Part shown: one piece after another, positions 2 through 63,376 of the stretch
Layout of the letters: the number at the start of each line of letters is the position of its first letter
Position numbering within the stretch: position 1 is the first letter of the stretch
IMG/VR virus record: IMGVR_UViG_3300028048_000068
Coordinates: 64,001 to 128,000 of that record
DNA: 64,000 bases
From: a virus
Taxonomy: Duplodnaviria > Caudoviricetes
Reading direction: 5' to 3' (one strand)
The notes under the pieces: generated by a model
Databases searched by the model: none
What the model was told of the DNA's origin: nothing
Seen by the model: the letters and a program-made list of their open reading frames with translations, nothing else
Made by a program: the position numbers and the translations under genes

Positions 2-2908
2 ACCTATAATGACATAGTTGGCACAACTCAAGCCCAAATCGCTGCATTAGACCAAGTTAAACAAAAAAACAAAGAACTTCTTGAGTCAAACCAGCGTCAA
101 CTTGCAGACTATAGAGCACAACAGCAATATGTAAGTTGGACCGATGGTAATGGAGAATCTCAACGTACATTAATTAATATTGGTCAATTCTTAGCTAGTG
201 ATGGAAAAATCGACTATAATGCAATTCAAAGTTTTGCTGGTGGTAATCGAGCTTTACAAGAGGCCCTCTTTAAAGAGGTAAGCTCTGGTAAGGATATGGC
301 TGATGGAATGCGCAATGCGCTTAAAGCAATTGCTGATGCTGATCAACAGATTGCAGACCTTGGTAAGAAAATTTCTGAAGCATTCTATCAATGGGAGAAT
401 GAACTTACTGAAGTATATAGTTTAACAAAACGTATTAATAATGAAGTTTCATTTACAAATAGATTTACTTCTCAAGTAGAACTTGAACTTGCTAAACTTG
501 GCGCAGGCTTTACTGACACCGCGAAAGCTATTGCAAATACACGAAATGTATTAATACGTAATAATGCTACTATTCAAGCACAAATTAAAAATCAGCAACA
601 AATGGTTGCTGCTCGTCAGCGAGAACTCGAGGCAGCATTAAGTTATGAGGACGAAGTCAATAAATATAAAAAATTTGAAGCCAAAACCGATTGGGATTCT
701 GAAGCAACCAAAACTGCGACACTTGAGTGGGCTAAAAATTTAGAAACAGGCGCAAGGCTTGGCTATAAATATGTTGCAGACAGTATTTTTAAAGATATTG
801 ATGGGTCTATTCAATATCAAATTGATTGGGAAAAATTTAATGCAGATAATGAAGCTAATCCATATTCAAAAGCTGATTATGAAGCAATTAAGAAATATCT
901 TGATGACCTTGATAGCGCGGCGACAGAGTTTAATAATTCAATTAAAGACCAAACAGACTTCATCAAGCAAACCTATGATGCTCTTAAGGAGTATCAAGAT
1001 TATGTTGCTGATATGGAAGATACTCTTATTAAGGGTGTTGAAGAAGAAATTGAAGAAGCTAAGGATAATGCAAAACAAATCAGTGATTCAATCACTAGCG
1101 CATTAAAAGACTTACTTGATGAGGTTAAGCGTAAACTTGATGAGCGTAGAAAACAAGAAGATAATGCGAAGACCGAAAGAGATATATCGCAAAAACAGCA
1201 ACGTCTTGCTATGCTGCGCGCGGATACCGCGGGCGGACATCAAGTTGAAATTGCACAACTTGAAAAAGAAATTGCTGATTCACAACAATCATATCAAAGA
1301 ACTTTAGAAGATCAATTACTTGATAGATTACAACAACAAGCTGATGAGGCTTCTGAACAAAGAGAGCGCCAAATCGCATTGATGGAAGCTGGTAATCAAA
1401 TTGATGCATCGACCAATAAAGAATTGGTTGACATGTGGCTGAAAGACCCTGAAAAGTATAAGGAAGAAATTAAAGCGGCATGGTTAGAAGCTCAAGGATA
1501 TGATGAGAAAGGTGAAGCTGGACAATATGTACTTGAAAGTCAATTTGAATCTGATTTCGCTCAATTAGTTACTGCCGTTGAGGAGTCAAATTTCAAAGAT
1601 AGTTTTAATGCATTAACAGCTGATACGAATTCACTCGCGGCATTACTTAATGAATTAACCAATGGACAACTTGGCAGAGAAGACGAACTTGCTCATAACA
1701 CTAATGCATTATTAGATGTTACAGATAGAAATACAACTTCTATTTTAACCGAAATGCAGAAGCAAAATTCTGCAGCAATGTTAAAAGCTAAAGGAGCAGA
1801 TGCGACCATTCTTAAAACTTTGGGCTATACAGCTCAACAAATGCTTGAAGGCAATTATACACCTGAAGAATTACGACAAGCTGGCTATACTGCAAAAGAA
1901 CTTGCAGAAGGTGGACTAACTGATGTAAGTGCTTTAAAGAATGCTGGATATGGCGCAAAAGATATAAAAGATGCCAATGTTGGTAATGCATCTGATTTCA
2001 AAGAAGCTGGATTTACTGCTGAAGAATTAAAGGATTTATTTAGTCTTGATGAATTAGTTGATGCTTTATTTGATGCTAAAGCCCTTAAAAATGCTGGGTA
2101 TGATGCCAATACTCTTAAGGGAGCGGGATTCGGCATTCAACAGCTGAAAGATGCAGGATTTACATTACCACAATTAAAGAGTGCTTTTTCTGCCACAGAA
2201 TTTGGTGCTGGTGGTATTAGCTATGACGATGCAAAAGCCGCAGGATATGGACTAAATGATTTAAAGCCAGTACTCGAATATGCATCTCGAGCACAACAAG
2301 AACAAGCTGCTATCGACGCGGCCGCGGCCGCTGCGGCAGCCGCAGCACGTGTAGGCAATGGAAATCCTTATGGCGCTGCAAGTCAAACCTCTGGCAAAAT
2401 TAATAAAGGTGATAAAGGAAATCAAGTTCGTTCAATTCAATGGGCTCTTAAACAAATGGGATATTACCATAACTCTATTGATGGAGATTTTGGTAATAAT
2501 ACGAAAAATGCAGTTAAGGCATTTCAAAGAGCTACTGGTATTAGTCAAGATGGAGTGGTTGGAAATCAAACACGTAAAAAATTTGCGGTTTATGGTTATA
2601 AAACCGGTGGTCTTGCTGATTATACCGGTCCAGCTTGGCTCGATGGTACCCCATCAAAACCAGAGCTTGTACTTAATCCAACAGACACAAAGAATTTCCT
2701 TGCACTTCGCGACGTATTAAGTAGTGCAATGAAGTCAACTAGCGCGGTTACAAATTCATATGGCGGCGACGTAATGTATGATATTAATATTCATGTAGAT
2801 AAGATTGAAAAAGATTACGACGTAGATAGAGTAGTAGATAAAGTTAAAAAAGAAATTACAAAAGGCGCCAGTTATAGAAATGTAACGCAAGTTAGAAACT
2901 TTAAATAA
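2..2908 (+). CDS. Tail tape measure protein, C-terminal part (5'-truncated by the window), with LKxAG(Y/F) repeats and a peptidoglycan-binding domain
   Basis: The frame is open from nt 2, upstream of the listed Met at 296. It has a long coiled-coil region, a PG_binding_1-like motif (GDKGNQVRSIQWALKQMGYY..DGDFG..T..AVKAFQ...GISQDGVVG) and a TMP-type C-terminus (YKTGGLADYTGPAWLDGTPSKPELVL). Confidence 0.75.
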   Translation, partial: TYNDIVGTTQAQIAALDQVKQKNKELLESNQRQLADYRAQQQYVSWTDGNGESQRTLINIGQFLASDGKIDYNAIQSFAGGNRALQEALFKEVSSGKDMADGMRNALKAIADADQQIADLGKKISEAFYQWENELTEVYSLTKRINNEVSFTNRFTSQVELELAKLGAGFTDTAKAIANTRNVLIRNNATIQAQIKNQQQMVAARQRELEAALSYEDEVNKYKKFEAKTDWDSEATKTATLEWAKNLETGARLGYKYVADSIFKDIDGSIQYQIDWEKFNADNEANPYSKADYEAIKKYLDDLDSAATEFNNSIKDQTDFIKQTYDALKEYQDYVADMEDTLIKGVEEEIEEAKDNAKQISDSITSALKDLLDEVKRKLDERRKQEDNAKTERDISQKQQRLAMLRADTAGGHQVEIAQLEKEIADSQQSYQRTLEDQLLDRLQQQADEASEQRERQIALMEAGNQIDASTNKELVDMWLKDPEKYKEEIKAAWLEAQGYDEKGEAGQYVLESQFESDFAQLVTAVEESNFKDSFNALTADTNSLAALLNELTNGQLGREDELAHNTNALLDVTDRNTTSILTEMQKQNSAAMLKAKGADATILKTLGYTAQQMLEGNYTPEELRQAGYTAKELAEGGLTDVSALKNAGYGAKDIKDANVGNASDFKEAGFTAEELKDLFSLDELVDALFDAKALKNAGYDANTLKGAGFGIQQLKDAGFTLPQLKSAFSATEFGAGGISYDDAKAAGYGLNDLKPVLEYASRAQQEQAAIDAAAAAAAAAARVGNGNPYGAASQTSGKINKGDKGNQVRSIQWALKQMGYYHNSIDGDFGNNTKNAVKAFQRATGISQDGVVGNQTRKKFAVYGYKTGGLADYTGPAWLDGTPSKPELVLNPTDTKNFLALRDVLSSAMKSTSAVTNSYGGDVMYDINIHVDKIEKDYDVDRVVDKVKKEITKGASYRNVTQVRNFK

Positions 2909-2910
2909 GC

Positions 2911-2946
2911 AATAAAAAAAGAGGACTATTAAGTCCTCTTTTTATT
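2911..2946. terminator. Bidirectional intrinsic terminator
   Basis: AATAAAAAAAGAGGACT-ATTA-AGTCCTCTTTTTATT lies between convergent genes. Confidence 0.85.
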
Positions 2947-8554: not shown

Positions 8555-11500
8555 AACATTAATTTTTTACTATGTTTAAATCTATCTTCTGTTTCAGCTA
8601 TTTTACCCTTATTAAAAGCTGTTTTATAATCACCAGTTAAATATCCGGTTACCCTACGTAATCTTTGAATGTTCTTAGACCCACACTCTGGACATTCGTT
8701 ATCAATTTCACCTTGCCAACCACAATCAAGACAAGTATCTGCAGGTACGTTCAAAGCAAAATATGGTATATCTTTATCCATTGCATAGTTAACAATTTGT
8801 TCTAAAGCTTCAAGATTTTTTAATACAGCACCTTCAAGCTCAACATAAGTAATACAACCGGCGCTTGAATATCCTGTGAGTTCAGATTCAATATCTATCT
8901 TATCAAATGGCGAAATTTCTTTCCATACAGGTACATGCATTGAGTTGGTGAAGTAATCTCTATCACTGATATTTGGAAGCTTTCCAAAGTCTTCTTGGAA
9001 CTTCTTCATAGCTGTATAACAAAGATTTTCGGCTGGAGTATAGTATACTCCAAAGTTTAATTTATAAGTTTGCTTAAATTCAGCGCACCTATCTTTGAAA
9101 AGTTGTTCAATGCGTTTAGCTAATTGCATACCTTTTTCTGTAGTATGGTCGCAACCAATAAGAATTTGCAGACATTCAGCTAATCCAAGCTGACCAATTA
9201 CAATTGTACCATGCTTCAGCGCGGAACGAATACCCTCTTCTGGTATATATCCCTTCATTGTGCCATTTTCATACATAAACTTTGCGGAGGATGGGCTTTG
9301 AGAACATATATACTCAAACCTCTCAAGTAACATATCCTTTGCTTCGTGAATTTTCTCATCAAGTAAAACCATAAAGTCTTCAACATTTCCTGCCTCCATA
9401 GCCAAAGTTGGCAAAATTATTGTGACAGGGCAAATATTGCCTCTACCATCCTTGAGTTGTCCGAATCCGTTTATGTCGTATCCGTTAGCAGTTCTACACG
9501 TGTTAACCTAATGTTACCATTAGCACTGACTATATGTTCCACCTTTCGGTGGCCTCGCGCTTGGAGTTAGTGCCTATCTCTAACTCTACTCCCTTACACT
9601 CATCAGGGATAGTCGATACACCTTATTCTTCATAATATTCAAATATCCAAGTATTTTTAAACGGAGATTTAATTTGACCGTTTAATCTAGTAGTAATTGA
9701 AGTTTTGCCATTCTTGATTCCACATGCTTGCGCACAAGCTATAACAGTATCAAAAATGTCAATTTCACCAGTTTTAATATTGGTTCGTTTTACTTTTCGT
9801 GCCATTGGATTTTTAGCACCAAGTTTTGTTTGACGAATTTTATCTTTAATAATATTCATTTCTTCTTTAGTTTTAGATTGATAAGTATTACCGCCACATT
9901 TAGAAATAGCATCAGTTTCATTATATCCTTTATTAACCGAGTCATAAAAACGAATCCAATACTGTTCTTTTTTATTTAACTCATCTTGTGTTTCGGCATT
10001 ATCAATAACTTGAAGTTTAAAACTTTGTGGGCCATATTTTCTAATGGCTCTAGCGAAATGAGTATCTAATATGTTATTTAAAGCATCATTAATATGCCTG
10101 TTAAACCTATATTCTACAGGACGAGTTGTTTGTCCTATATAAACTTTATTGTTTTGAATATTTGTTATTATATATATTTCTCCAATAATCATTAATAAGT
10201 CTCCTTTTTAATGAATATTATGAAGAATCTTGGCACGGTCTCATCCACTAGGGACCTAACCGTTAGCCACTATTGTGACACCCGCGGGCGCGGTTCACGA
10301 GGTTTTAGATGGGCTATAGTTTACGCTTACCCATCGTTGAGAAATATGTGCTAGGGTCGTTGCGGTCATATCCCGCGTTGCCCGACCAATCTACATTGGC
10401 ATAGTTTGGATATAAGCGTTTTGCTGTTGATTCAAGAGCAAGTTTATATAAGTCATAATTTGGGGTACCTGGTTTATCATTGACACCTTTCATATATTGG
10501 AAGATTCCACAAGGGAAAATTGCCGTTTTGTGAAGTTTGCCAACTCCTTTGATTGAGCCTTCGAGAAGAGCTTTAATAATCATGCGGCCCTCTGGAAGTG
10601 TGCATGTGCCGTAATTAATTGATGTGAATGGTAGCTGATTGCCGCTGCGCGATTGAAGGGTATTAAGGTTATGATACATTCCTTCAACTGCTTGAGCGAT
10701 TTCTTTTTCTGTCATATCCATGGCATATTTATATGCTTTAGACTTTATTTTAAAAATATCATCATCAATGGATAACTCTACCATTGTATAATTATTCCAA
10801 TAAGAAAAATCTTCTTCAATATAGGTAAGTCCATCTTTAAAATGCTTATAAAAACTTTTTCTTACATATGGAACCATTGTCCAATCAAGATGTGATGCAC
10901 TTACTCCACCAAATTGTTGAAGCGACTGAAGCTGGAACAGAACGGCTACTAACTGAAATGCTGTATTAACTGAATTGGCTGGTCTTACATCTGTTTGTCT
11001 TGTGTTAAATCCATTGGCAAGTAAATCATCAAATGGAACTGTTAAACAGTTATGCATCCCCAGAATATAAGCATCAAGGTCATGAATATAAATCTCATTA
11101 TTTAAATGATTATTACGAGCCATTTTTGAAACAAGATTATCAAGTGCATACTGTTTAAAAATAACCGAATCTGCCTCACCTCTGCGGCCGCCGAATGAGT
11201 ATTCGTCAACATTAGCATTTTGATTCTGTACGTCGGTTGCGGCTAGCTTAACAGCGACGCGGTCCATCATTTGCGTATTCCACTCACGTTCACGATTTCT
11301 GTCTTGTCTATAACGGATATATGCCCTTGCCACATCTTTACGTTTTGTAGACATAAGTCCGTTTTCAACCAAGTCTTGAATTTCTTCTACTGTTAAAATT
11401 TTATTGTTTTCTTTTTCAATAAAAGTAGCTATATTATTGGCTTTATCTATTGCATAGGTAGAGATTTCTCCATCAATTTGTTCAAAAGCTTTTAATATAG

Positions 11501-11787: not shown

Positions 11788-12895
11788 TTCTTACTTCACC
11801 TCCACGATATTCATAAAAGTCTTTGAATAAATCATAATTATTTTCTCTTACAAAATTAAAAATCTTTTGTATAGACTCTTTCTCTAATATTGGCTCTTTT
11901 ATGTGATATTGTTTAATGGCGGCATAACAGTAGCTATATAGTGTTTCAAAAGGTTCAACCGTATTGAAGAACGCAGACCTTCTTTTAACTACTAAATGCT
12001 GTGTATATCTAGCAATTAATTTCATTACGTTTTTCCAGTCATCATCAATGAGAGAGTTCTCATTATATATAAGTGGAAAAACGATATGATAACTTCGTAA
12101 ATTTATGATGTTGCGAAAAATACGTTGAATACCACCATTGATTAATTCTTCATTAGTGTAGCAGTTGGTTAAGTCAACAGATAGTTGTTGATAAGCCGCT
12201 GAAGTTTGCATTACTTCGGTCATTTCTGGGATATATGACTCATCTATTAAACCCTGGTGAGTTAGAGAGAAATAGGTTCCCATTGGCTGAAGTTCTAACC
12301 AAGATATTAAATCTGTTTTATTGTTTACGATGACCGGATACTTCATACCTACTCGGCGGCCAAGCGAATTGGATATCCAATCAGTTAGATTATCTTTAAT
12401 TAGTACTAATGCGCCATCAACATTGTTTAAATTATAGTCATGAAATATAATTCCAAAGTTGTCGCTGTCATGCCGAAATTGTTTTTCAAAGTCTTTCCAA
12501 ACAGTACTTCCATCAAGAGAAAGTCTTACATGTTCAGCGCGGCGCATTGTACTTAAAGCATTTTTATTGTAACCGTGTGCCAATTTTGGATTTAAACTAC
12601 CGTATAATGATATATCGGGTTTCATGCGCTCTATATCTAATGGAAGTGGCTTATATTTATCTCCGTCGAAGGCGCGGCCGCCATATTCGACGTTCGAATA
12701 TGTAGGTAACTGCGTATATGGATTATAGAAGTCTTGACGTACAATAAAATGGTTGTATCGGTTAGGGGAATAGCTGGGCGCTAACCCAACTATTTCCCGT
12801 TTGCGTTTGTAATAAGAGGATAATTTCATTAGTTCCAAATTATAAAAAGGAATTGGATAGTATGGAAGGTCTGCATCATATAATCCATAACTCAT
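11777..12895 (-). CDS. Hypothetical protein resembling the N-terminus of a phage radical-SAM-like family, lacking CxxxCxxC
   Basis: GLYDAD...NLELMKLSSYYK...GG...LPLDIE.MKPD.SLY pattern. Confidence 0.45.
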   Translation of the reverse strand: MSYGLYDADLPYYPIPFYNLELMKLSSYYKRKREIVGLAPSYSPNRYNHFIVRQDFYNPYTQLPTYSNVEYGGRAFDGDKYKPLPLDIERMKPDISLYGSLNPKLAHGYNKNALSTMRRAEHVRLSLDGSTVWKDFEKQFRHDSDNFGIIFHDYNLNNVDGALVLIKDNLTDWISNSLGRRVGMKYPVIVNNKTDLISWLELQPMGTYFSLTHQGLIDESYIPEMTEVMQTSAAYQQLSVDLTNCYTNEELINGGIQRIFRNIINLRSYHIVFPLIYNENSLIDDDWKNVMKLIARYTQHLVVKRRSAFFNTVEPFETLYSYCYAAIKQYHIKEPILEKESIQKIFNFVRENNYDLFKDFYEYRGGEVRNDR

Positions 12896-13716: not shown

Positions 13717-16700
13717 TATTCCGCCTCCGCGCGCTCAGAAGTAGTTTCTATTGTTCCGTCCTCTCGTATATAAGTGATTTTTTCTACTAATGAGTATGGA
13801 GTTTTGGAGTATTTTTTAGCTAAAAAATTCGTTTCGTCTTTTTTAATTCCAGTTACAATTATTTTATTTCCTCGGCTAAAATAACTTTTTTCAACTACTT
13901 TTTTAGTACCATCCGCGCGCCGTATAGATATTTGCTTGTCATAATGTGTGAATGCATCACCGAATATCTTTACGGTTACTACGCTATCATTTGTTAATAA
14001 GGTAACCGTTTTTTTGTTTTTATCTCTATCTAACACCGTTCCCGCAATGCGACAAATTTTAAACATCGGAATTCTTCTTCCATCTTTTGAAGGAAAAGTA
14101 TAGTCAACTATTGGTTCATTAGGTAATTTATTGAAACTACTTATTCCATATAAACTATTTTTAAGCTTTTTTAATTCATGGTCGTGGATATAACATGAAA
14201 TCGAATCCATTTCCCACTGACTTATGTTACCTAAACAATATTTGTCCCATAAGTCTTGTCTTAATCTATTGTTTACTTTATTTAATAATTCTTCATTGTT
14301 TTTTTGAATAAATGGACGAATTATATCCATTTGCTTTTTATATATTTTATCCCAATCAGTTTGTTTAATTTGAAATATATATTGAGGTTCAGAACTAACC
14401 ATTAATAAATCCATATCAAAATTATATGAGTAAAAGCCTAATGCTATATCATCTAATCCATATGAATTACCAAATTTAAATTTTTTCAAATACTTATTAA
14501 AATTGTAAACTCTACATTGTAAATCGTATTCTTCTGGAATCAAGCCAAAGTCAATTAACATCTTCATATTTTGAAGTGTAATACGCTTTTTCTTATCTGC
14601 AATCAAATCTATATACACATTCATTGCTTTTATACGGTCGCCGCCATATAATCCATCGAATGCGCCCGACTTAATCAAATTAATCATCTGCGGTTTATTA
14701 ATTTTAATTTTACTTAAAAAATCTTCAATATTCTTATATGGACGATTCTCCATTATTTGCTTTACAATTTCATCGCCTACTTTTGTAATACCACTTAATC
14801 CATATACGATACGATTATTATCTATATCTGGCGAAAATGTATATTTTGATTGATTTATATCAGTTGCAACAATTGATACGCCCTCATGACTCATTTTTCC
14901 AATAGCTGTAGCAATCTTACCATAGTTTGCACTTTTTGCTGGTTTCTTTTTGGACTTAGATTCAGATATATCGGATTCATCTTCATCATCGTCATCACTG
15001 TCTTCAAATACTCCCATTGATAAGTCATAAGTGGTTTCCCCAACATCTTCTCTATCTGTTCCTTCGTCATCATCTTCACTTTCTTTTTCTGCGCCACCGC
15101 TATCAGAGATAAGACACGCGCAATCCCACAAAATCGTTGGATATTTATATGCAAGATTTAATTCCTGTAATCCAATTAACGAATATGCTAATGTATGTGA
15201 TAGGTTAAATCCATATCCTTTTGACATCGCGATTAATACGTTCCATACATAAGTACATAACTTTTCATCTAAACCTTTTTCTTTTATTGTTTTAAAATAC
15301 TCATCGGTTAACTTATCATATTCTGCTGGATTCTTTTTCGCAATTGATTTTCTTAACTTATCCGCCCAAGTCAGATTAAATCCACCTAGCTCTGGGAGCT
15401 GAACCAATTGCATGAACTGTTCTTGTGCAATACACAAACCATATGACGTACTCAATACTGGTTCAAGAATTTCTTTAGCTTCGGCGCCGAGTCCATATTT
15501 CTTTAACTCATAATCCCAATCGCTTGGGTGTGCTTTAAAACGCGCAAGCTTATTAACTGGCATTTCTCCACCCTTTTCTGTCGCCATAAGACGAATTGCA
15601 GAGTTGAGAATTGCCAAGTCATCTACTGATGTTGGTTTCATCGCTGCAATTCCGCTTATTCCAGACTGTTTCTCCATTTGGAATAAACTCATTACCTTAT
15701 GATTCCAACACATCTCCCACATTTCTTTACTATCTCTTTCGAGATTGTAAATACCAATTATTTTTTCATATGTTTCTTTTAATGTGGCTTCTCTTTCCTC
15801 ATAACCATATTCACAAATTAAATCAATACAGTTATGAATTTTATCAAGTGCTTCTACTGAAAGAATATCGTATTTAATAAGTCCTGTATCTTCTGCATCA
15901 TGAAGGTCGAACTGTGTAATAATTTCGCCTTTTGGCGCACGCATAAGTGCGGTTGACTCTGTAAACGGTTCATCAACAAAAATTACACCACCTGCGTGGA
16001 TACCGCAACCATTTATAAGTCCTTCGATACCCTGCGCGACTCTCCATACCTCTGGATAATTCTCTTCCATTTCAGTTCTAAACTGAACCGATGCGCTCAT
16101 TCCGTTGTCTGGGTCACCATAGAATGTTTGTTTGAGAGTTCGAAGCTGTCCTCTATCTGCTTGGATAAATGAAGATAGATATGCAGCTATATCATTGTCA
16201 ATTCCAAGACCACGACAAGCTGTTTGAATTGCCGACTTTGACTTCTCTGTCTTCAAAGTTAATACGTTCGCAACCCTATCTTCTCCATAAATATTACGGA
16301 ATGACTTCAATACTTCTGCGCGCCGGCCGCCCTCGATGTCAATATCTACGTCAAGAACCGATACACGCTCTGGATTTAAGAATCTCCAACGCTTTGTCTG
16401 ACTCTTTTCTCTTAATGGATTTATCTGTGTAATACCTAACAGATATAATAATATAAATCCTACTCCTGAGCCTCGGCCGCAACCGACGAGAGTTCCTGCA
16501 TCCCAACACGCATCAATTATGTTTTGAAGATTTAAAAAATATGCACTCCATCTACTTCCATTTACTTCTGATGAAATCCATGTATCTTCAAGACACGCAT
16601 TAATTTCATCTAATGTACGTTTATTTTGAAATTCATGATATTTACTTATTTTATATATAATTGCTTCTGCTAAACGACGGTCTTCAGAATACTCTGAATT

Positions 16701-18587: not shown

Positions 18588-20354
18588 TTAAAACCCCAAT
18601 GTTCCATCTTCAATTTGATAATTACTTATAAAAATTTGTGGAGTATAATTCCCCATCCACTCATTTAAATTTGCTCTACCAACGACTTCTAATTTTACAT
18701 CGCCATCATACTTTTCCAATTCTTCAATAAATTCTTTCGCATGAAACTTCATATAAGCAATCCCAAACTTGGTAATTTTAACTGTATCTTGGTTCTTGCC
18801 CATAATCTGTATATCACGCTTTGTTATATTAATGTCTTTAATATGAATTAAAGGCTCATTATTTTGCTGACCCCAAATATCTTCATGGCTTGCGATATCT
18901 ACAATTAAATCTTCAATATCTGTATCTGCAGCGATTCTTTCGAAGTTCACTTCATACCATGACTCACCAAAATCTACATTTTCAAGTTCTTTATTTGCAT
19001 ATTCATGGAAAGCCGCTAAATTCTTATCTAAAATACCTATGCCGCACGCATTATCATGGCCCGCAGTAAAGGTGAAATAACCACTATTATCCATGAAGTT
19101 CTTAAAAGATGTAAGTTCCGATTCATTTAAACCCCTGCTTGACCCTTTAATTTCGCCCTCATCATTAAGACGTGCCACTATGGTTGGCTTCTTATACTTC
19201 GCGCTCAACTTCATAGCAACAAGTCCATTTAACTCCGGTGGAAATTGGTCATCTTCTTCCAACCTAACAAATAATACTTTATTCGAAAGTAAATCGTGTT
19301 TTGCAATTTTAATTTCAAGTTCTTCAACTGCCTTATCGAGTATGCGATTCTGCTTCGCACGCGCATTTGTACACTCGCGCGCAGATTCAATTGCGACTTC
19401 TTCGTAGGTTCCCTTTGCACCACGCTTATGAGATTCTACCATTGCATGACCGTCGATAAAGGCTTGAAAACAGCGTTGTTTTTCGTCTTCTGCGCCAGCT
19501 CTAATCATCGCATTGATAAGTGGAGTTATATAGAAGGCTACGCTAATTGGATTGACTTTGCCGCCCATTGAGAAGGATTGTTTTTCGCATAATGCTTTAA
19601 AGAAATAATTTTTGATATTAGCAAGTCCTGTGTGTACGATATATCTATTCTCAAGCGATAACATCGACATCATATCACTTATCAAACCAAGTGCAGCCAG
19701 GTCGATAAATTCATCTGCATAAGAAGTGCCTTCACACCTATCTACATATCTACAAAACTGCCATGTTACACCCGCGCCGCATAAATCTTTATTTTTATAG
19801 TCATCAGACAACTGATTATTAACGATAACAGCATGCGATGAGAATTTAGTATCTGGCTCTACTATATGGTGGTCTAGAATAAGAAATTGCGGTATTATTT
19901 CATCCTTCTCTCTTGAAGATACTATTTTTTCCATATATTCATAATCATTACTTCCTGCATCTGGAAGCACTACGTAAGAAGGATAAGTATTAGCTACTTC
20001 TTCATATGTATCTGAAAGACCATGACCTTTTGCATTATGAAGAATTGGTACTATATTTACTTCTTGATTGAATTTACGTAGATATTGTATGAATATGGCG
20101 GCCGAGGTAAATCCATCTACATCACTATCTACGACGACTGTAATTGTTTCGTCTTTTGAAGCAACTGTCATATTTTTAAACATTGCCCATGCGCGGTCTA
20201 TATTAGTGAGCCATTTTGGATTTTGCAGATAGTCATCGTTTGGTACTTCAAGGAAGTATTTAATTTCGTCTTCGCTTAACCCGCGCTCTTTAAGTAACTC
20301 AATTGTATAGTTGTTTCTTATGTCTTTATTTACAAGTTTAGTCTTCATTCGCAT
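18588..20354 (-). CDS. recJ: RecJ-like ssDNA exonuclease (DHH family)
   Basis: DSDVDG, DHH, LCGAGV, DLAALG, GSSRG and GHDNACG. Confidence 0.9.
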   Translation of the reverse strand: MRMKTKLVNKDIRNNYTIELLKERGLSEDEIKYFLEVPNDDYLQNPKWLTNIDRAWAMFKNMTVASKDETITVVVDSDVDGFTSAAIFIQYLRKFNQEVNIVPILHNAKGHGLSDTYEEVANTYPSYVVLPDAGSNDYEYMEKIVSSREKDEIIPQFLILDHHIVEPDTKFSSHAVIVNNQLSDDYKNKDLCGAGVTWQFCRYVDRCEGTSYADEFIDLAALGLISDMMSMLSLENRYIVHTGLANIKNYFFKALCEKQSFSMGGKVNPISVAFYITPLINAMIRAGAEDEKQRCFQAFIDGHAMVESHKRGAKGTYEEVAIESARECTNARAKQNRILDKAVEELEIKIAKHDLLSNKVLFVRLEEDDQFPPELNGLVAMKLSAKYKKPTIVARLNDEGEIKGSSRGLNESELTSFKNFMDNSGYFTFTAGHDNACGIGILDKNLAAFHEYANKELENVDFGESWYEVNFERIAADTDIEDLIVDIASHEDIWGQQNNEPLIHIKDINITKRDIQIMGKNQDTVKITKFGIAYMKFHAKEFIEELEKYDGDVKLEVVGRANLNEWMGNYTPQIFISNYQIEDGTLGF

Positions 20355-21068: not shown

Positions 21069-22117
21069 TTTACTCTTACTCTCCTTCTATAAAGCTTCCA
21101 AAAGATTTCACTTCCTTTATCCGTCGGTGAATCTTTCATATCTAACAAGTTTTCTCTATCGTATATAAATGAAAAGTCACAATAGTTCTGATATTTCTTT
21201 CCTATTTGCCACAGCTTATTAAAATAGTCTTCACTACCAAGCAACTCCTCTTTATCAAAACAAATTACGACTTCGCGCGGGTGTGCGGTTTGCATCAACA
21301 GTTTTAAAGCGTGTTTATTAAACTGACTTCCGCATACTGCGGTCGAGCAGTTCGCAAAATCCCACCCCTCCATTTGGAGTACAGATTTTTCTGCCTCTAC
21401 CAAGAAACACGTACCCGTTCGCTTTATGTTGTCTTTAGTCCAGTTCAATCCATACAGATTCAACGACAATGGATGACTATACCATTTACCTTCAATTTGT
21501 ACAGGCATATACTTACCCACATTCTCAATTTCCCATTCGTTGAGTGCGCGCCCTCGTATTCCAACAAGTTCACCTTTTGGATTATAATGTGGTATTATAA
21601 TCTTATTTTGTGGTACTGAATAACGTATATTAAATTTTTCCATACTCGTTTTAGTAATACCATCGTTTAACCACTCCGGAGGATAAAACTTTGTAAATAC
21701 ATCAATTATTCCATTCGGATATGTCGGAAGCTCTATACGCTCGGGCGCAGCGTACGTATCTCGTATACGCTGATACCTCTTCGGCGCAAAGCCGTCTGGC
21801 CTACGATAATTACTACAATCAAGAATTACCTTATATATATCTTGATACCAATCGTAATCATATCCTCTACACTCATAATAATGTTTAAGAAATTTAAAGA
21901 TTGACATATTACCACACTCTGTATAGCATACAAAGAGGTGATTATTTTCATAATAATATAATTTCATAGATGCTTCATCGGCATCTTCATTATGACAAAT
22001 AGTTGGAAAGATTACATATCCTGGTTTTTCAATATAATTATCTGCACCAAGTGTTTCCATTAATTGAATTACTTTTTGTGTATCTAATTGCTCAACTATA
22101 CCTTTATAATCAATCAA
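21065..22117 (-). CDS. DNA primase (DnaG-like)
   Basis: Zn finger (ICHN...CYTEC), IIIPH...GIRGR, LYGLN and a TOPRIM-like VEAEKS...FDKE. Confidence 0.85.
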   Translation of the reverse strand: MIDYKGIVEQLDTQKVIQLMETLGADNYIEKPGYVIFPTICHNEDADEASMKLYYYENNHLFVCYTECGNMSIFKFLKHYYECRGYDYDWYQDIYKVILDCSNYRRPDGFAPKRYQRIRDTYAAPERIELPTYPNGIIDVFTKFYPPEWLNDGITKTSMEKFNIRYSVPQNKIIIPHYNPKGELVGIRGRALNEWEIENVGKYMPVQIEGKWYSHPLSLNLYGLNWTKDNIKRTGTCFLVEAEKSVLQMEGWDFANCSTAVCGSQFNKHALKLLMQTAHPREVVICFDKEELLGSEDYFNKLWQIGKKYQNYCDFSFIYDRENLLDMKDSPTDKGSEIFWKLYRRRVRVK

Positions 22118-37045: not shown

Positions 37046-37096
37046 ATTAATTCCTCTATATATAATATATTTTTTTTGTTTTTCTCTTTCTATTAT

Positions 37097-37126
37097 ATTA
37101 TAGCAATTTTAGCGTCGGTGTGTCAA
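37097..37126 (-). promoter_or_regulatory. Sigma-A promoter
   Basis: TTGACA-18-TATAAT with TG extension. Confidence 0.7.
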
Positions 37127-37516
37127 ATTTTTGTGTTGTTGCCAATCGAGGTCATTTTTCCATTTTGAAGTCGCGCGAAAACGAGGGTTGAATAGGTCGG
37201 CCGCAGTATGCAGATTGTCAAGCTCCCAATAGGGGATTATATAGAGCGGAATATTGTGTGCGAGGCAATAACTTATCTTTCGTCTATCTCGCTCTTGTGC
37301 TTGTACGAACTCTGCGCGCGTGCGATAAAATTTGCGAACAGGTTGATAGTGTTGTTCGCCCTGTACCTCTACGCAACATGGAATCGCTCGGCCGCCGTAT
37401 ATGTAAAAATCAAAACGATAATGACCTTTTTTCAAATCACTAAATCGTTTCTCTCTTTCAAATTTATATTTACCTTTCTGTAACAAGGCAATAACTTTTT
37501 CTTCATATCTACTCAT
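37109..37516 (-). CDS. Vsr/DUF559-like endonuclease
   Basis: YRFDFY...EVQGEQHY...D.RK..YC..HNI.L..IPYW. The start is the ATG after GGAGG (37516). Confidence 0.7.
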   Translation of the reverse strand: MSRYEEKVIALLQKGKYKFEREKRFSDLKKGHYRFDFYIYGGRAIPCCVEVQGEQHYQPVRKFYRTRAEFVQAQERDRRKISYCLAHNIPLYIIPYWELDNLHTAADLFNPRFRATSKWKNDLDWQQHKNLTHRR

Positions 37517-37540
37517 ATCCAATCCTCCACTGCTAAAAAG

Positions 37541-37570
37541 TAGAGTTTTCCCCAATCAACTCCACTTATA
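37541..37570 (+). promoter_or_regulatory. Putative late promoter TAGAG-N17-CACTTATA heading the tail operon
   Basis: Shared motif, with no sigma-A consensus at this site. Confidence 0.6.
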
Positions 37571-47423: not shown

Positions 47424-47451
47424 GCGGCCGACCTAATCAACGCTCGGCCGC
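47424..47451. other. GC-rich intergenic hairpin
   Basis: GCGGCCGA...TCGGCCGC. Confidence 0.5.
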
Positions 47452-50586: not shown

Positions 50587-50596
50587 GAGGAATAAA

Positions 50597-52024: not shown

Positions 52025-52036
52025 AAGGAGAAAAGT

Positions 52037-52430: not shown

Positions 52431-52431
52431 T

Positions 52432-53589: not shown

Positions 53590-53597
53590 GAGGTAAT

Positions 53598-57159: not shown

Positions 57160-57170
57160 GAGGTAGTACT

Positions 57171-57623
57171 ATGGCAGAATATTTAGCTAATGCTACACAA
57201 CTGGTTGACCTTAATCAGCCAGTAGTATTCAGTGCTTCTATTCCGTGTCAGAATGGATATGTAATTCATGAAGACGAAACTGGAATTTTTATTCTACGAG
57301 GCGCTACTCCTAATTGCTTTGCAAGATACCAAGTTACTTTTAATGGTAATATTGCTGTACCTGAAGGTGGAACAGTTGGACCGATTGCGGTTTCAATTGC
57401 GGTTAATGGCGAAGCTAGAACGACTTCGCGCGCGATTGTAACGCCGGCCGCGGTAGAAGAGTATAACAATGTAACTTCAACTGCAATTGTAACTGTCCCA
57501 CGTGGATGCTGCTTCAGTGTTAGCGTCCGCGCAGTCAGCGGAATTGTCGATGATGCGGCAGGTACCCCTGCGCCGGCAATTAATGTAACCAATTCTAACT
57601 TGGTAATCAACAGAATCGCATAG
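57171..57623 (+). CDS. Operon gene 5: beta-sandwich protein, BclA-CTD/C1q-like
   Basis: All-beta pattern G.F.L.G....YQVTFNGNI...V.V.......IN..N.NL.I.RIA. The start follows GGAGG. Confidence 0.55.
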   Translation: MAEYLANATQLVDLNQPVVFSASIPCQNGYVIHEDETGIFILRGATPNCFARYQVTFNGNIAVPEGGTVGPIAVSIAVNGEARTTSRAIVTPAAVEEYNNVTSTAIVTVPRGCCFSVSVRAVSGIVDDAAGTPAPAINVTNSNLVINRIA

Positions 57624-57634: not shown

Positions 57635-58147
57635 ATGGAAAAGAAAACAATGGATGCTCTCCGCGCGATGCTTTGTGGAGAGATTGAGGATATTGCAAAG
57701 AAAGGCAATTTAACTCATGAGTCGCTGGATATATTAAAGGACTTAATTGAAACCGAAAAGAATTTAGGTAAAATTGAATACTATGATAAAGAAAAAGAAG
57801 AGTCTCAGGCACTTATGATTCCGGGATATAGTCAGAGAAAGTATTATATAGATGCTGACTATCAACCAGGCCAGATGTCATACGCTGGGCCGCGAGGTTC
57901 ATACAACATGGGCGGAGGCTCATACGGTATGGGCGGAAACTCATATGGCGGCCGCATGGTTTATGATGTTGATAGAAACTCTTATATGTATATGACTCCG
58001 CAATATGACCAATCAATGGCAAGAGGATATAGTAGAACAGGGTCGAAGACGGAGATGGTAGAAGAGTTAAAGACTATGATGAATGAGACCACCGATCAGA
58101 CAGTGAAAACAGCTATTCAAGATGCTATTGCTAAAATGAATAAGTAA
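57635..58147 (+). CDS. Operon gene 6: helical ends with a Tyr/Gly/Met/Ser low-complexity core
   Basis: GSYNMGGGSYGMGGNSYGG and RGYSR. Confidence 0.75.
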   Translation: MEKKTMDALRAMLCGEIEDIAKKGNLTHESLDILKDLIETEKNLGKIEYYDKEKEESQALMIPGYSQRKYYIDADYQPGQMSYAGPRGSYNMGGGSYGMGGNSYGGRMVYDVDRNSYMYMTPQYDQSMARGYSRTGSKTEMVEELKTMMNETTDQTVKTAIQDAIAKMNK

Positions 58148-58152
58148 GTTTG

Positions 58153-58181
58153 AAAACGGGTACTATATGTACCCGTTTTTT
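58153..58181 (+). terminator. Intrinsic terminator
   Basis: AAAACGGGTAC-TATAT-GTACCCGTTTTTT. Confidence 0.88.
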
Positions 58182-58293
58182 GTATACGAAATACGTTGAG
58201 AGCGGCCGCTCAATTTCTTGTATAAGTCAGTTCAACTTGCTCATAAAATAGGTTGACCGCGCGCCCTCAACGTACAACTTCTACGTTCAAAAT

Positions 58294-60092: not shown

Positions 60093-61394
60093 ATGGCGGA
60101 AATTAGTAAAATAACGTTACCTTCTGGTAATACCTATGAACTCAAAGACGCGACAGCTCGCCAAATGATTAGCGGCGGTGTTAGTTTTATAGTAGCATGG
60201 GATGGTACTGGTACTGCCGTTGCAGCAAATGTGCCGAAAGGCGTTAATGCTGGTGGTGTTACGGGTACGTTGGAAGCGGCCGATGCTCAGGCGGGCGCAT
60301 TTTATTTAGTTAAATCAGCATCTACACCAAGTTCAGAAACATTAGATATTTATGATGAATATGTAGTTATTGGTTCAACTACAAAAAGTTGGGAAAAAAT
60401 TGGAGATACTCAACTTAATTTATCTGATGTAGTTACTGGAGTTAGTTTAACTAAACAAACTGATGTAGTACTTGGTGAAGCGACTACTTTTACAAATGCT
60501 AGTTCATCAGTTTCATTTACTGGTGGAACTACTGATAAGGTACTCGGTGAAGCTACAACTTTTTCTGTAAGTAAACCAGCTATTACAGTTACTCCATCAA
60601 CTACTAATATTAAAGCTACTGCTAGTGGTGCAGCAGTTGGAGCGAATGGTACAGCAAAAGTAATTACCGGATTTGGTACTCATACAACAGATACTTTTGT
60701 TAAGTCAGTTACTGCTGAAACTGGAAAGAATTTAGTTACGACTACAGTACCTAATGTTACTGGTAATACTACTGTAACAATTCCTAATGTAACTGGAAAT
60801 ACAAATGTTACTATTCCAAATGTGACAAGTGTGGGTAGTGCTTCTACATGGAATTTTGCGATGGGAAGTGGCGATGCCGCAGAAACTTTAATTATTAGTG
60901 GAGCTAATTCAACTGCACCAACTTTAGGAACAGCTTTAAGTGCTTCAAAAGTAACACTTGGAACTGCGCTTACTGCAACAAATACGACACTTGGTACTGC
61001 GAAGACGGTAGCTACAGGAGCTACATCAACTACTGGTACTGGTGATGCAGTTGTTACTGGAGTTACTGTAGGTGATTCAGCTACAGCTATTACAGCTCTT
61101 GGAACTCCTACTACAGCAGATGCATTAACAGGAGTTAAGGTTACTACACAACCTACAATTGCACTTGCTACTGGCGCCACAGCTGGTACTGGAGTTATTA
61201 GTGTTGCAACTGGAATCAGTTCGGCTACTGCTGGAGACCAAACAGTCACAGTTGGTACAAATGATAAGGTTACGGCTGTTACTGGAATTGGAACAGGTAC
61301 TGCGGCAGCTCAAACGATTACAGTTGGAACTAATGATAAGGTTACCGTACTTAAGAATACTACAGATGTTAGCGTAACAAAAGGCAACGCATAA
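60093..61394 (+). CDS. Thr/Gly/Ala-rich fibre-like virion protein
   Basis: ISKITLPSG.TY.LKD..AR start, WEKIG, and internal repeats (VTIPNVTGNT; TVGTNDKVT). Confidence 0.65.
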   Translation: MAEISKITLPSGNTYELKDATARQMISGGVSFIVAWDGTGTAVAANVPKGVNAGGVTGTLEAADAQAGAFYLVKSASTPSSETLDIYDEYVVIGSTTKSWEKIGDTQLNLSDVVTGVSLTKQTDVVLGEATTFTNASSSVSFTGGTTDKVLGEATTFSVSKPAITVTPSTTNIKATASGAAVGANGTAKVITGFGTHTTDTFVKSVTAETGKNLVTTTVPNVTGNTTVTIPNVTGNTNVTIPNVTSVGSASTWNFAMGSGDAAETLIISGANSTAPTLGTALSASKVTLGTALTATNTTLGTAKTVATGATSTTGTGDAVVTGVTVGDSATAITALGTPTTADALTGVKVTTQPTIALATGATAGTGVISVATGISSATAGDQTVTVGTNDKVTAVTGIGTGTAAAQTITVGTNDKVTVLKNTTDVSVTKGNA

Positions 61395-61841: not shown

Positions 61842-61855
61842 GGAGGTGAGAAGGA

Positions 61856-63376
61856 ATGATATTTAATATGGTCGGTGGTGCCGGCTCTGGAGAATCACTT
61901 CTCATCTCTGATACTATAGATGCGAATGGGGGTACTATTCGTACTATTACTGGAAAGGTTGTAAAACTACAAACGAAGACAATTACGCCAACAAGTTCTG
62001 TTCAGAATGTATTACCTGATACAGGATATGATGGCTTTAGTCAAGTTACAGTTGGGGCGTCGAGTGGCTCAACGATTAATAATCAAAATAAAACAGTTAG
62101 TCCGTCTACTTCACAGCAAACTATAACGGCAGATTCTGGATATACGGGATTAGGTACGGTCACCGTCAATGCAATGCCAACTATGACGCTTCCAACGTCG
62201 GCATCATCTTCTGCTACGTCTGGTTATACTTCCAAAGCTACAATTGGACGTAGTACCGCGGCCCAGTATATAAATATACCACCGGGTTACAATAGTGCCG
62301 GTGCATATTATGTAATTAGTGCAGTAGCTAATGGTTCGGCAACTGGACCGACAAGTTTGAGTGGTTCAAGTGCTACAATTACAACCGGCACTAATACAAT
62401 CACACTTACCAAAACCGGTGTTACAACAACGCCAACTGTCTCTGCTGGTTATGTATCCAGCGCGACGGCATCAACTGCTACGGTGGCGCTCACTGCGTCA
62501 GTCACAGTCAATCCAACTCCGACGGCATCAGGGGCAACGGTTACAATACCAGCTGGTTATTACAGCGCACAAACAACTAAATCAGTTACATCTGGTAGTG
62601 CGACAGCGCCTTCATCAATCAGTGGGACGGCCGCGAGTGTAAGTACAGGCACAAATACATTAACACTTACAAAGACAGTTAGTGTAACGCCGACAGTTAC
62701 TGCAGGCTATGTAAGTAGTGGAACGGCAGGCAATAGCTCAGTTTCACTTACCGCTTCTGTTACAACCAAAGCGGCAGCTACAATAACTCCTACAACTACA
62801 AATCAAACAATTGCGGCTGGTACATATCTCACTGGCATCCAAACAATTGCAGGAGATGCTGACCTTGTAGCTGCAAATATAAAGAAAAATGTTAACATTT
62901 TCGGAGTTACAGGTAGTTACGAACCAGATGATTTTATTGTTACATTAACTCAAGATTCAAATAATAATTGGGTTCCAGATTGTACTTTTGCTGAATTAGC
63001 AGCGGCATATAGTAGTGGTAAAAATATAAGCTATTATGCTGAGTATCCTGCTGTTGCTACTGGTTCAGGTAGTTATAATGATTTTGATAATGTTATTAGT
63101 TATATCGTAATAGAAGATTTTGCAAATGGTAATAGTTGGGGAGTTGTTGAAAAATCATATAAATTTAAGTCATCTGGAGTAACCCTAGATTTAACAGATA
63201 CTTATTATTTAACTGGCACTGCTACAGCTCAACCATCTAATGTAGTTTCTGGTCAAATTTTCTTTAATGGTAGTGGTTATCAAACTGGTACATTAGACCT
63301 TACGGACGTATATATTCGTAGTGCTGCGCCGACTTCATGGGTTGGTAGCGATGGCGATATATATATTCAAGAATAG
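61856..63376 (+). CDS. Thr/Ser-rich fibre-like protein with internal repeats
   Basis: K...P....Q....D.GY.G...VTV repeats, GDADLVAANIKKNVNIFGVTG, and a GSDGDIYIQ end. Confidence 0.65.
   Translation: MIFNMVGGAGSGESLLISDTIDANGGTIRTITGKVVKLQTKTITPTSSVQNVLPDTGYDGFSQVTVGASSGSTINNQNKTVSPSTSQQTITADSGYTGLGTVTVNAMPTMTLPTSASSSATSGYTSKATIGRSTAAQYINIPPGYNSAGAYYVISAVANGSATGPTSLSGSSATITTGTNTITLTKTGVTTTPTVSAGYVSSATASTATVALTASVTVNPTPTASGATVTIPAGYYSAQTTKSVTSGSATAPSSISGTAASVSTGTNTLTLTKTVSVTPTVTAGYVSSGTAGNSSVSLTASVTTKAAATITPTTTNQTIAAGTYLTGIQTIAGDADLVAANIKKNVNIFGVTGSYEPDDFIVTLTQDSNNNWVPDCTFAELAAAYSSGKNISYYAEYPAVATGSGSYNDFDNVISYIVIEDFANGNSWGVVEKSYKFKSSGVTLDLTDTYYLTGTATAQPSNVVSGQIFFNGSGYQTGTLDLTDVYIRSAAPTSWVGSDGDIYIQE

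Follow-up and report, generated by a model that had tools for sequence, protein, structure and literature searches.

Why should an AT-rich phage genome be strewn with copies of a word made only of G and C? We examined a large rumen phage through a window of 64,000 nucleotides (35.6% G+C), in which the original prediction had placed 26 CGGCCG sites, all extending to GCGGCCG on one strand. Each of those positions is exact and 26/26 sites extend: GCGGCCG occurs 15 times, CGGCCGC 21 times and the octamer GCGGCCGC 10 times, and since 15+21-10 = 26, every site carries the 7-mer. The whole phage genome (136,627 bp, or 136.6 kb; 36.5% GC) has 54 CGGCCG sites, 53 with the 7-mer and 16 of the 54 full palindromes (GCGGCCGC-type octamers). 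Motif density is 1 per 2.5 kb, and GCGGCCG copies stand about tenfold above expectation.

Results

The number of hexamer sites expected in the window is about 2 at order 0, 2.5-3 at orders 1-2 and 5.7 at order 3. Synonymous codons were then shuffled within genes 300 times, with the protein and each gene's codon usage preserved. CGGCCG occurs 34 times in genes versus 6.1±2.5 in the shuffles (maximum 16 in the 300; z≈11) and GCGGCCG 26 times versus 2.4, the motif excess over codon-preserving shuffles giving z≈11-15. The enrichment on which the original prediction had staked its claim thus persists when amino acids and codons are held constant; the iterated word is genuine at the DNA level and no codon artefact. 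GCGCGC and CGCGCG, also said to be frequent, are so (51 versus 8.9 and 40 versus 8.3). Other enriched GC-only hexamers are mostly 1.5-2.9-fold over expectation and fall below CGGCCG, with the GCGCGC family alone coming near (3.7-5.6-fold).

The sites occupy all three reading frames, both orientations and, as predicted, intergenic DNA, which holds at least 13-20 of the 54 and makes up 9-19% of the genome. Spacing between sites is Poisson-like (CV 1.04). Eight sites do fall at 33.5-38.9 kb, but they form no significant cluster (scan statistic P=0.054 for the window, 0.14 for the genome).

The unit is the asymmetric 7-mer CGGCCGC and not a simple HIP1-type palindrome. About 50% of sites in this phage and its three close relatives (G000 and G001-G003, respectively) run on, on the C side only, into an asymmetric consensus of some 20 nt (~20-28 nt in this lineage), G-nn-CG[GC][GC]CGC-AG-nG-nn-CGTA(CAAC). 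This flank accompanies 50% of asymmetric sites on the C side, 1% on the other side and 0.5% of random positions. The two central positions of the core accept only G/C (CGGCCGC 69, CGCGCGC 35, CGGGCGC 19, CGCCCGC 10; centres containing A or T, 1-12), and these G/C variants substitute for one another at orthologous positions. The motif lies in the direction of transcription 42 times and against it 46 times; this lack of orientation bias argues for a DNA-level and against an RNA-level reading. Departures from the octamer palindrome are confined to the first or last base, a HIP1-like signature. The proposal of a HIP1-like iterated motif therefore stands as regards an iterated DNA word with such departures, and falls as regards a palindrome, the unit being an asymmetric 7-mer with a one-sided extension.

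Single in-gene copies, found in every frame and both orientations, are built stepwise through silent and amino-acid changes. Two overlapping GCGGCCGC octamers (2318..2331, unstranded; CGGCCG at 2319 and 2325) lie in the Ala-rich part of a 3340-aa structural protein gene. Further unstranded GCGGCCGC octamers lie in the NrdD N-terminal ORF (11184..11191, where G001, G002 and G003 keep CGGCCG at the corresponding position), ORF 11777-12895(-) (12674..12681; extended flank score 7.4), the DnaB-like helicase gene (22455..22462), the short UvrD-like helicase gene (35278..35285 and 35862..35869), the 1836-aa tail gene (43948..43955; extended flank 8.8) and ORF 57635-58147 (57948..57955). Minus-strand GCGGCCG sites occur in the RecJ-like gene (20098..20104), again in the DnaB-like gene (23029..23035) and in ORF 60093-61394 (60276..60282). 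On the plus strand, CGGCCGC falls in a 161-aa ORF with a C-terminal CxxC...CxxC motif (33509..33515), the GIY-YIG endonuclease ORF (36112..36118), a Dit-like tail gene (38870..38876), ORF 57141-57623 (57445..57451) and ORF 61856-63376 (62628..62634). Two more plus-strand copies lie in the DnaE-type polymerase gene, at its EGGRR motif (16324..16330; kept in relatives to 56% aa identity) and its GCGRGSG motif (16474..16480; kept in 19 relatives), and both persist in relatives down to 56-63% aa identity.

The GIY-YIG ORF carries a full extended motif (CGGCCGC, 36651..36657, minus strand; flank score 16.0), whose place is taken in G001-G003 by the variants GCGGCCGC, GCGGGCGC and GCTGCCGC. The 1836-aa tail gene has a full extended motif (CGGCCGC, 41063..41069, plus strand; 14.6) that arises, relative to G002 and G003, through silent and amino-acid changes with length unchanged. 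A CGGGCGC-core extended motif (13.9) at 21742..21748 (plus strand) is matched by GCGGCC at the same place in G003. Within gyrB (CGCGCGC core, 31268..31274, minus strand; 15.7), the ~21-nt motif has graded, stepwise intermediates across close relatives, and GGT-ACG-TAC is retained at silent positions by motif-bearing relatives alone, a constraint on the DNA inside a gene.

Between genes, the long signal of about 20 bases forms the ends of small insertions of about 100 bases. Inverted pairs of the long motif, 40-56 bp apart, make these elements, five of which have cores 55-56 bp apart. Close pairs number 15, 14, 10 and 8 in G000-G003 against 3.6-6.3 expected, and none is found in G005, another relative, or in motif-free relatives. 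One element (58175..58290, unstranded) has CGGCCGC on its left arm (58202-58208, minus) and CGCGCGC on its right (58258-58264, plus), cores 55 bp apart, and is preceded by an intrinsic terminator. A closer intergenic inverted pair, GCGGCCG-N13-CGGCCGC (47424..47451, unstranded; sites 47425 and 47445), bears the extended motif (14.6) on its right arm, with the next tail gene 52 nt downstream. Both arms of a pair keep the consensus, and the central dinucleotide and spacer are not complementary between arms. Two elements are missing at the same intergenic spot in relatives, and arms of ~17-21 nt reappear at unrelated places there. Inspection by eye showed no target duplications around the elements, and the search for a Y1/RAYT transposase was negative.

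Across the phage family the enrichment is patchy, including on the polymerase tree: CGGCCG(C) heads the list of over-represented words in five genomes, and five others have almost none. G005 is enriched in the bare 7-mer without extension or pairs, so core and long motif may differ in cause. No binding protein emerged: the genes common to motif-bearing genomes only are small ORFs without a family match. Positions of sites are conserved between genomes, as the original prediction suggested checking, only slightly more than those of other GC-rich hexamers; together with random spacing, this would also fit a mutational or conversion drive. Among bacteria, GCGGCCG occurs 4 times in a 2-Mb Bacilli MAG (G006) versus 69 times in the 0.137-Mb phage, a candidate AT-rich host-type genome has, per Mb, about 250 times fewer copies of the GC-only 7-mer than the phage has, and 0/401 sampled Bacilli genomes reach phage-like density.

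Discussion

We tentatively read the motif as a dispersed recognition site for a putative DNA-binding or DNA-processing protein of the phage lineage. Of the functions first proposed, a protein-binding signal is still the best reading, if a putative one; a recombination signal is not borne out, since the sites are absent from the edges of homology blocks, which argues against recombination junctions. In this reading a sequence-specific protein would recognize a DNA-level site whose GC-only core is GCGGCCG/CGGCCGC, and selection on the DNA itself would maintain 30-54 copies in each genome. Single sites stand within genes in whatever frame and orientation, and two inverted sites 40-56 bp apart form the ~100-bp elements, gained and lost between relatives like REPINs or MITEs. 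We infer that the motif is read by a protein and serves the genome as a whole, not particular genes; it may, for instance, mark phage DNA for a process of replication, recombination or nuclease control. The reader may instead be a host factor.

An unlikely explanation is that the motif is a by-product of methylation-linked repair with the methylase supplied by the host, either through a CGGCCG methyltransferase and a bias toward G before methylated C, as proposed for HIP1, or through Dcm/Vsr short-patch repair. As in Elhai's HIP1, the hexamer core rarely lacks a flanking G or C and departs at the first or last base; sites are randomly distributed without orientation bias, the excess is larger where constraint is weaker, and patchiness among relatives could track host strain. 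The original prediction had offered such a link as one reading, noting a Vsr-like nuclease where sites are densest and suggesting a look for a C5 methyltransferase elsewhere in the genome. No PF00145 (C5) methyltransferase is present in the phage or 10 relatives, PF03852 is absent from the phage, and PF01555 (N4/N6 methyltransferase) from the phage and 4 relatives. One-off T/A variants, the neighbours that deamination would yield, show no depletion (TGGCCG 1.2, CGGTCG 1.1 and CAGCCG 0.9 of expectation), no sampled Bacilli genome has a comparable excess, and a one-sided extension in half of the sites is unexpected for a hexamer methylase.

The nuclease itself (37109..37555, minus strand; PD-(D/E)XK, EDxHD-like) does have a Vsr-type fold (1vsr, TM 0.48), but it matches no Vsr Pfam model and, as above, lies in no significant cluster. 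It resembles the I-Bth0305I homing endonuclease domain (TM 0.63 by target) and is grouped by PHROGs with homing endonucleases. Its ORF carries CGGCCGC at 37198..37204 and 37389..37395 (both plus strand; extended flank 12.2 at the latter) and a CGCGCGC-core extended motif (16.8) at 37314..37320 (minus strand). Homologues 48-50% identical occur in motif-free relatives, and the gene is not tied to the motif.

Slightly less probable is selfish spread, in which a REPIN/MITE-like mini-element has the long motif as its terminal repeat and in-gene singles are decayed copies, or copies converted by short-patch gene conversion, without benefit to the phage. The inverted ends, the near-constant core distance in five pairs, the occupied or empty intergenic positions and the reappearing arms all suit it. 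The missing transposase and target duplications, the in-gene copies that arise by point changes without change of length while silent positions are held, and the core enrichment of G005 without pairs speak against it.

Known Firmicutes Chi sites resemble the motif in length, G+C richness, density, use of all frames and lineage specificity. The 7-mer might accordingly modulate the activity of a helicase-nuclease, either the host's AddAB/RecBCD or an enzyme of the phage, and thereby shield phage DNA during replication and favour recombination; the phage has a recombination module of Sak4-like AAA_24, RecJ-like and UvrD-like genes. We nevertheless regard this as improbable: there is no polarity along the genome, even in G002 with its fixed ends (direct terminal repeats), and we put down the strand bias in G005 (6 versus 20) to gene-strand bias with a mild sense-strand preference. 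A host's own Chi should be enriched, yet it is so in no sampled Bacilli genome, and the one-sided extension and inverted pairs are left unexplained.

Decidedly improbable is that the DNA gyrase encoded by the phage prefers these sites, much as in the case of the Mu strong gyrase site or E. coli BIME-2/REP, with the GGCC centre serving as a GxxC cleavage stagger in place of avoided GATC. The phage encodes GyrA and GyrB, GATC is tenfold depleted, and 63% of sites have G at -4 from such a cut. S. pneumoniae gyrase cleaves GxxC, most often GATC (PMC12630141), and that of E. coli favours BIME-2 repeats and those parts of their stems that are not complementary (PMC6379681). However, G+C around 204 sites shows no 10-11-bp phasing, motif-free relatives also carry gyrase genes, GATC depletion does not track motif density across the family, and the bases flanking GGCC are unlike the published gGatCc.

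An RNA-level role, the motif supplying GC-rich arms with which AT-rich transcripts would form hairpins for termination or processing, is already disfavoured and highly improbable: strong hairpins or terminators do contain some of the intergenic sites (the element at 26325/26380, with a predicted fold of -46 kcal/mol and z -3.6; terminators at genome 24591 and 27292, whose G-U pairs make them functional on one strand only), but most sites are single in-gene copies, both orientations are equally common, arms lack compensating changes and folds around sites (-32.5 kcal/mol) are no better than around other GC-only hexamers (-29.9).

Comparison with known systems

HIP1 (GCGATCGC) and the alternate highly iterated palindromes of cyanobacteria (Elhai 2015, PMC4390886) share with the phage motif a strongly over-represented hexamer palindrome flanked by G and C (G-CGGCCG-C in the phage, G-CGATCG-C in HIP1), found in genes in all frames, 7-mers that carry as much information as the octamer, and deviations at its first or last base. 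HIP1 is denser (~1 per kb), and the phage motif differs in its few full palindromes, its apparent restriction to phage as far as bacterial genomes were sampled, the failure to find a cognate methyltransferase, and, in half of the sites, a one-sided ~20-nt extension not reported for HIP1.

REPINs and REP-BIME elements (Bertels & Rainey 2011, PMC3116915; PMC3337134) likewise consist of two inverted G+C-rich repeats of ~20-28 nt around a short spacer, ~100 bp in total, intergenic, multi-copy, accompanied by singlets and variably present between relatives, and they too were discovered through over-represented short words. The phage elements differ in having no RAYT (Y1 transposase) found and arms that are not fully complementary; most phage singlets sit in genes and evolve by point change, and the genome is that of a phage.

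Chi sites and DNA uptake sequences (USS/DUS) are also short, asymmetric, many-copy words, lineage-specific, present in genes in all frames and subject to turnover of position. Unlike them, the phage motif has no polarity to genome ends or gene strand, is not enriched in sampled candidate host-class genomes and extends to ~20 nt. Finally, while single in-gene copies genome-wide have not been reported for the PeSL (promoter-early stem-loop) cassettes of T4-type phages, and the sequences are unrelated, those cassettes share with our elements the placing of repeated hairpin-type units between small early-gene cassettes, beside sigma-70-type early promoters.

The CGGCCG excess acts at the DNA level

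The enrichment of CGGCCG in this phage genome (G000) is real and acts at the level of DNA. All 26 positions listed for the window in the original prediction are exact, and every site extends to GCGGCCG on one strand (15 + 21 − 10 = 26). Base composition leads to an expectation of about 2 sites, near the 1–2 proposed, and Markov models of orders 1–3 give 2.5–5.7. Across the whole genome there are 54 copies, all but one (53) extended by the seventh base, and the octamer palindrome GCGGCCGC occurs 16 times against about 0.1–1.3 expected; like HIP1, it is over-represented genome-wide, coding DNA included. When synonymous codons for a given residue were permuted gene by gene (300 shuffles), genic CGGCCG numbered 6.1 ± 2.5 (maximum 16), compared with 34 in the actual genes; for genic GCGGCCG the expectation was 2.4 and the count 26. 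Thus, the enrichment persisted under shuffles that preserve amino acids and codons; its disappearance was what the original prediction had named as a refutation.

Most other over-represented GC-only hexamers are raised just 1.5–2.9-fold, a level for which local G+C patchiness alone can account, whereas the CGGCCG/GCGGCC family stands out at 4.6–6.2-fold, and patchiness does not explain an excess of about 6-fold. Words of the GCGCGC/CGCGCG/CCGCGC family, the first two of which were suspected from the outset to be frequent, reach 4–5.6-fold. Sites occupy 10–19% of the positions that the protein sequences permit. Together, the codon-preserving shuffles and the hexamer and occupancy comparisons rule out a codon or amino-acid artefact. 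Spacing is Poisson-like (CV 1.04), with sites neither evenly spread nor clustered: eight do lie within window 33.5–38.9 kb, but this grouping falls short of significance (P = 0.054 for the window, 0.14 for the genome).

The core lies within a longer asymmetric motif

Among the 54 hexamers, 16 carry the seventh base on both flanks, 37 on one and 1 on neither, where independence predicts 22, 25 and 7; the unit is therefore an asymmetric 7-mer. When sites are aligned as CGGCCGC, G occupies position −3 in 63%, T is almost absent at +7, and C-G-T-A follows at +13 to +16. The two central bases vary: counting both strands, cores with a G/C centre comprise CGGCCGC (69), CGCGCGC (35), CGGGCGC (19) and CGCCCGC (10), and those with A/T-containing centres occur 1–12 times each. 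A flank matrix trained on five genomes, with a cut-off passed by 0.5% of random positions, accepts 39 of 133 cores in G000 and 23–37 in each of three close relatives (G001–G003), and only 5 of 58 in a further relative, G005. Among asymmetric sites, 50% have the extension on the C side and 1% have it on the opposite side. Consequently, the seventh base belongs to an asymmetric motif of about 20 nt, G-nn-CG[GC][GC]CGC-AG-nG-nn-CGTA, and intergenic copies often continue to ACGTACAAC(C/T)T. The proposed HIP1-like palindrome therefore holds in its over-representation and in its variants, which depart mainly at the first or last octamer base, but the symmetric palindrome is not the unit.

Extended sites are intergenic in 37% of cases, and the motif's orientation does not follow that of the genes (42 on the same strand, 46 on the opposite one). 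A promoter reading was rejected because the motif faces either way with equal frequency and many sites lie deep within long genes. Rfam searches returned tRNAs and one ROOL RNA only, with no match at the sites, and RNA folding around sites is no better than in controls, structure being confined to a few intergenic copies.

Single copies within genes

Comparison with relatives shows that single genic copies arise by point change and are constrained. At the gyrB site, G000 reads AAC GAC CGC GCG CAG GGT ACG TAC where G002 reads AAT AAT CAA AAA CAA GGA ACA TAT; graded intermediates of the motif are found in 17 closer relatives, and only those that bear it retain GGT-ACG-TAC/T at the silent positions. 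A tail-gene site at window 41063 shows the same kind of point changes, with length unchanged. The signal is strong enough to alter protein sequences and to keep silent codon positions from drifting. Two sites in the DnaE-type polymerase gene lie on the conserved protein motifs GCGRGSG and EGGRR, and keep TGC-GGC-CGN and GGC-GGC-CGN down to 56–63% protein identity, with adjacent silent positions varying. At orthologous places, core variants swap for one another.

Where the protein is unchanged, however, exact retention over all sites is 0.67, 0.50, 0.17 and 0.50 in G001, G002, G003 and G005, compared with 0.63, 0.35, 0.32 and 0.27 for other GC-only hexamers, so most positions turn over.

Inverted pairs between genes

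Neighbouring cores 15–75 nt apart number 15 in G000 against 6.3 expected. Five pairs are exactly 55–56 nt apart, four of them combining a CGGCCG arm with a CGCGCG arm. Such pairs number 14, 10 and 8 in G001, G002 and G003, and none was counted in G005 or in motif-free relatives. The close pairs of G000–G003 have the arrangement of REPINs and REP-BIMEs, and form intergenic elements of about 100 bp, often immediately downstream of a terminator or immediately upstream of a TTGAAA-N17-TATAAT early promoter. Both arms conform to the consensus, but they do not pair at the central dinucleotide (GC opposite CG) or in the 5-nt spacer; folding is uneven (z of −3.6 for one element, +0.4 to −3.2 for the others).

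Two elements show the presence/absence at orthologous sites that marks REPIN mobility: G001 and G002 lack the one at genome 7478 in the corresponding intergenic spot, and G002 and G003 lack the one at genome 51717 in theirs. A third is retained in G001. What recurs in other genomes is confined to the 17–21-nt arms. No RAYT (Y1 transposase, PF01797) was found in G000, G001, G002, G003 or G005.

Distribution among relatives and bacteria

CGGCCG(C) is the most over-represented word in G000, G001, G002, G003 and G005, with 30–54 sites each. Five further family genomes, complete or nearly so, contain 0–4 GCGGCCG matches, both strands counted; in one of the family phages, G009, none of 144 GGCC occurrences lies within CGGCCG. 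The trait is patchy on the polymerase tree, and the most distant member carries it. Enrichment of GCGC and GCGCGC is family-wide, and other lineages favour other GC-rich words, such as GGCGCGA(A) in G012. Separately, G011 has just 9 GGCC in 111 kb, and (A)CGTCTAA(A), a possible promoter element, is present in 30–52 copies in G003, G009 and G012. G005 has the excess of the bare core, a warning that the core and its longer form may differ in origin.

The iterated signal appears to be phage-specific. None of 401 genomes sampled from the candidate host class, Bacilli, comes near the phage's roughly 500 sites per Mb at low G+C. Among genomes, relatives of the polymerase occur only on short metagenome-assembled contigs labelled 'Bacilli'; one such assembly, a 2-Mb goat-rumen genome, includes a 3-kb contig with 79% identity to the phage polymerase and has 4 GCGGCCG in total. 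Homologues of GyrA and the endolysin led to a single label of a metagenome-assembled genome, Oceanobacillus sp., which gives no usable host name. A scan of viral contigs with the long motif yielded for the most part isolated chance matches in unrelated contigs, and the only genes that track motif-bearing against motif-free genomes are small ORFs without family matches. Small early ORFs confined to G000–G003 lie at genome 1941–2339, 6324–6611, 7562–7861, 28918–29238, 31065–31520, 37046–37489 and 97005–97238; with a Zn-ribbon ORF at window 33416–33901, they are the first candidates for a motif-binding protein.

Gene content of the phage

The IMG/VR phage record (136,627 bp, 36.5% G+C, CheckV completeness 100%), of which the window covers bases 64,001–128,000, is that of a large siphovirus, distantly SPbeta-like, with a DnaE-type polymerase 36% identical to YorL and Dit and Tal-like tail genes. 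Its family comprises many 110–145-kb phage contigs, mostly from rumen and gut metagenomes, going by sample numbers. The phage encodes DnaB-like helicase, RecJ-like and Sak4-like AAA_24 proteins and, from GyrB (window 29886–31757) and GyrA (window 27414–29765), both on the minus strand, a full DNA gyrase. The anaerobic ribonucleotide reductase gene nrdD is split into minus-strand ORFs for the N-terminal (window 10314–11564) and C-terminal (window 8551–9414) parts, with a 189-aa ORF between them (window 9623–10192); the split (window 8551–11564) is likely an intron or homing-endonuclease insertion.

Several other features of the genome were observed. At window 34859–37555 lies a row of endonuclease-type genes: first an ORF of 358 aa for a short UvrD-like helicase, in which both the N-terminal and the C-terminal helicase domain are present, then a GIY-YIG endonuclease ORF whose N-terminus is a long coiled coil, and last a Vsr-fold nuclease ORF. 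Outside the window are a full-length ROOL RNA (L001:5585–6183, in genome numbering; Rfam RF03087, 285 bits) and 25 tRNA genes in the early region (L001:9426–16800); an RtcB-type tRNA ligase gene lies at L001:18893–20140. Repeated modules at L002:12800–19700 (genome 31.8–38.7 kb) carry CGAACATATGTTCG, which resembles a Firmicute LexA box, together with TTGTTAA...TTAACAA palindromes and GCCCGGGC, whose 8 sites top all 8-mers of the genome for over-representation. Nearby, an array of four repeats of about 20–37 nt of GTATACGTATTACGTATACG type, with CGTATACG palindromes (L002:11172–11650, genome 30.17–30.65 kb), may be an origin or operator cluster. At window 2318–2331, GCGGCCGCGGCCGC forms two overlapping octamers that encode Ala-Ala-Ala-Ala in an Ala-rich stretch of a 3340-aa protein (genome 56886–66908).

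GATC is depleted tenfold (28 observed, 278 expected). Of its 19 sites in the window, 12 fall within 49.9–54.2 kb (49921–54200), and both G001 and G002 lack homologues of the genes at window 50597–54263. This segment therefore looks recently acquired.

Alternative explanations

The best-supported reading is that the core is a dispersed recognition site for a putative lineage-specific protein. This site doubles, in one lineage, as the termini of small intergenic elements that resemble REPINs. Foremost among the remaining rivals is methylation-linked bias, a possible cause of the enrichment that the original prediction had tied to repair and to a Vsr-like nuclease. The cognate methyltransferase of a HIP1-type signal was sought elsewhere in the genome, and no C5 methyltransferase (PF00145) was found in G000 or 10 relatives, no N4/N6 methylase (PF01555) in G000 or 4 relatives, and no Vsr family match (PF03852) in G000. 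Nor is there a VSP-type loss of neighbours: internal one-off variants, including those that deamination would yield, are at expectation. The unenriched state of the 401 genomes from the candidate host class also counts against it, though not decisively.

The nuclease itself (window 37109–37555, 148 aa, model pLDDT 90.5) has a predicted PD-(D/E)XK fold, with Vsr and the I-Bth0305I homing-endonuclease domain as best small matches. The predicted fold is thus Vsr-like (TM 0.48 and 24% identity to 1vsr), but I-Bth0305I is equally close, and membership of the Vsr family and the partner methyltransferase both failed to appear. Its match to PF24579 is weak (E 0.15), PHROGs groups it with homing endonucleases, and homologues 48–50% identical are found in motif-free phages.

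A selfish conversion drive comes second and is possible. Recombination, also suggested at first, found no backing, as sites are not enriched at mosaic or recombination junctions. A Chi-like role is third and possible; against it, G000 shows no orientation polarity (20 against 17), changes of orientation are as frequent as chance predicts, and the two halves of G002, a genome with terminal repeats, do not differ. None of the 401 genomes from the candidate host class shows the over-representation that a host's own Chi should have. The last possibility, gyrase sites, is suggested by the GxxC centre and the BIME precedent, but phased G+C periodicity of about 10.5 bp is absent around 204 sites and gyrase genes also occur in phages without the motif.

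Comparison with known iterated signals

Beyond the reading as a dispersed recognition site, a fuller proposal is that one family of large rumen phages keeps a genome-wide tag, a GC-only 7-mer within an asymmetric site of about 20 nt, read by an undescribed protein that is neither a methylase nor a RAYT, with this site also driving REPIN-like mini-elements. We consider this unlikely as a whole. If true, it would be a phage-borne iterated-signal system, marking phage DNA as self or mobilizing DNA, without a described counterpart.

In presence/absence and paired-arm behaviour, the phage elements are like REPINs and MITEs (PMC3116915, PMC3337134). They differ from REPIN/REP-BIME systems, which have an associated RAYT, in being without a Y1/RAYT transposase.

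An excess of a GC-rich 'palindrome' in phage DNA does not have to reflect restriction or methylation. Sister phages without the signal and one lineage with the core alone provide natural controls, and the on/off pattern in more than 100 related contigs should make the reader protein or driving process findable by comparative genomics and binding assays. HIP1, Chi, USS/DUS and REP are iterated words of bacterial chromosomes, and to our knowledge HIP1 is still without an explanation even in bacteria. Here, a comparable iterated signal is carried by a phage family rather than by a bacterial chromosome.
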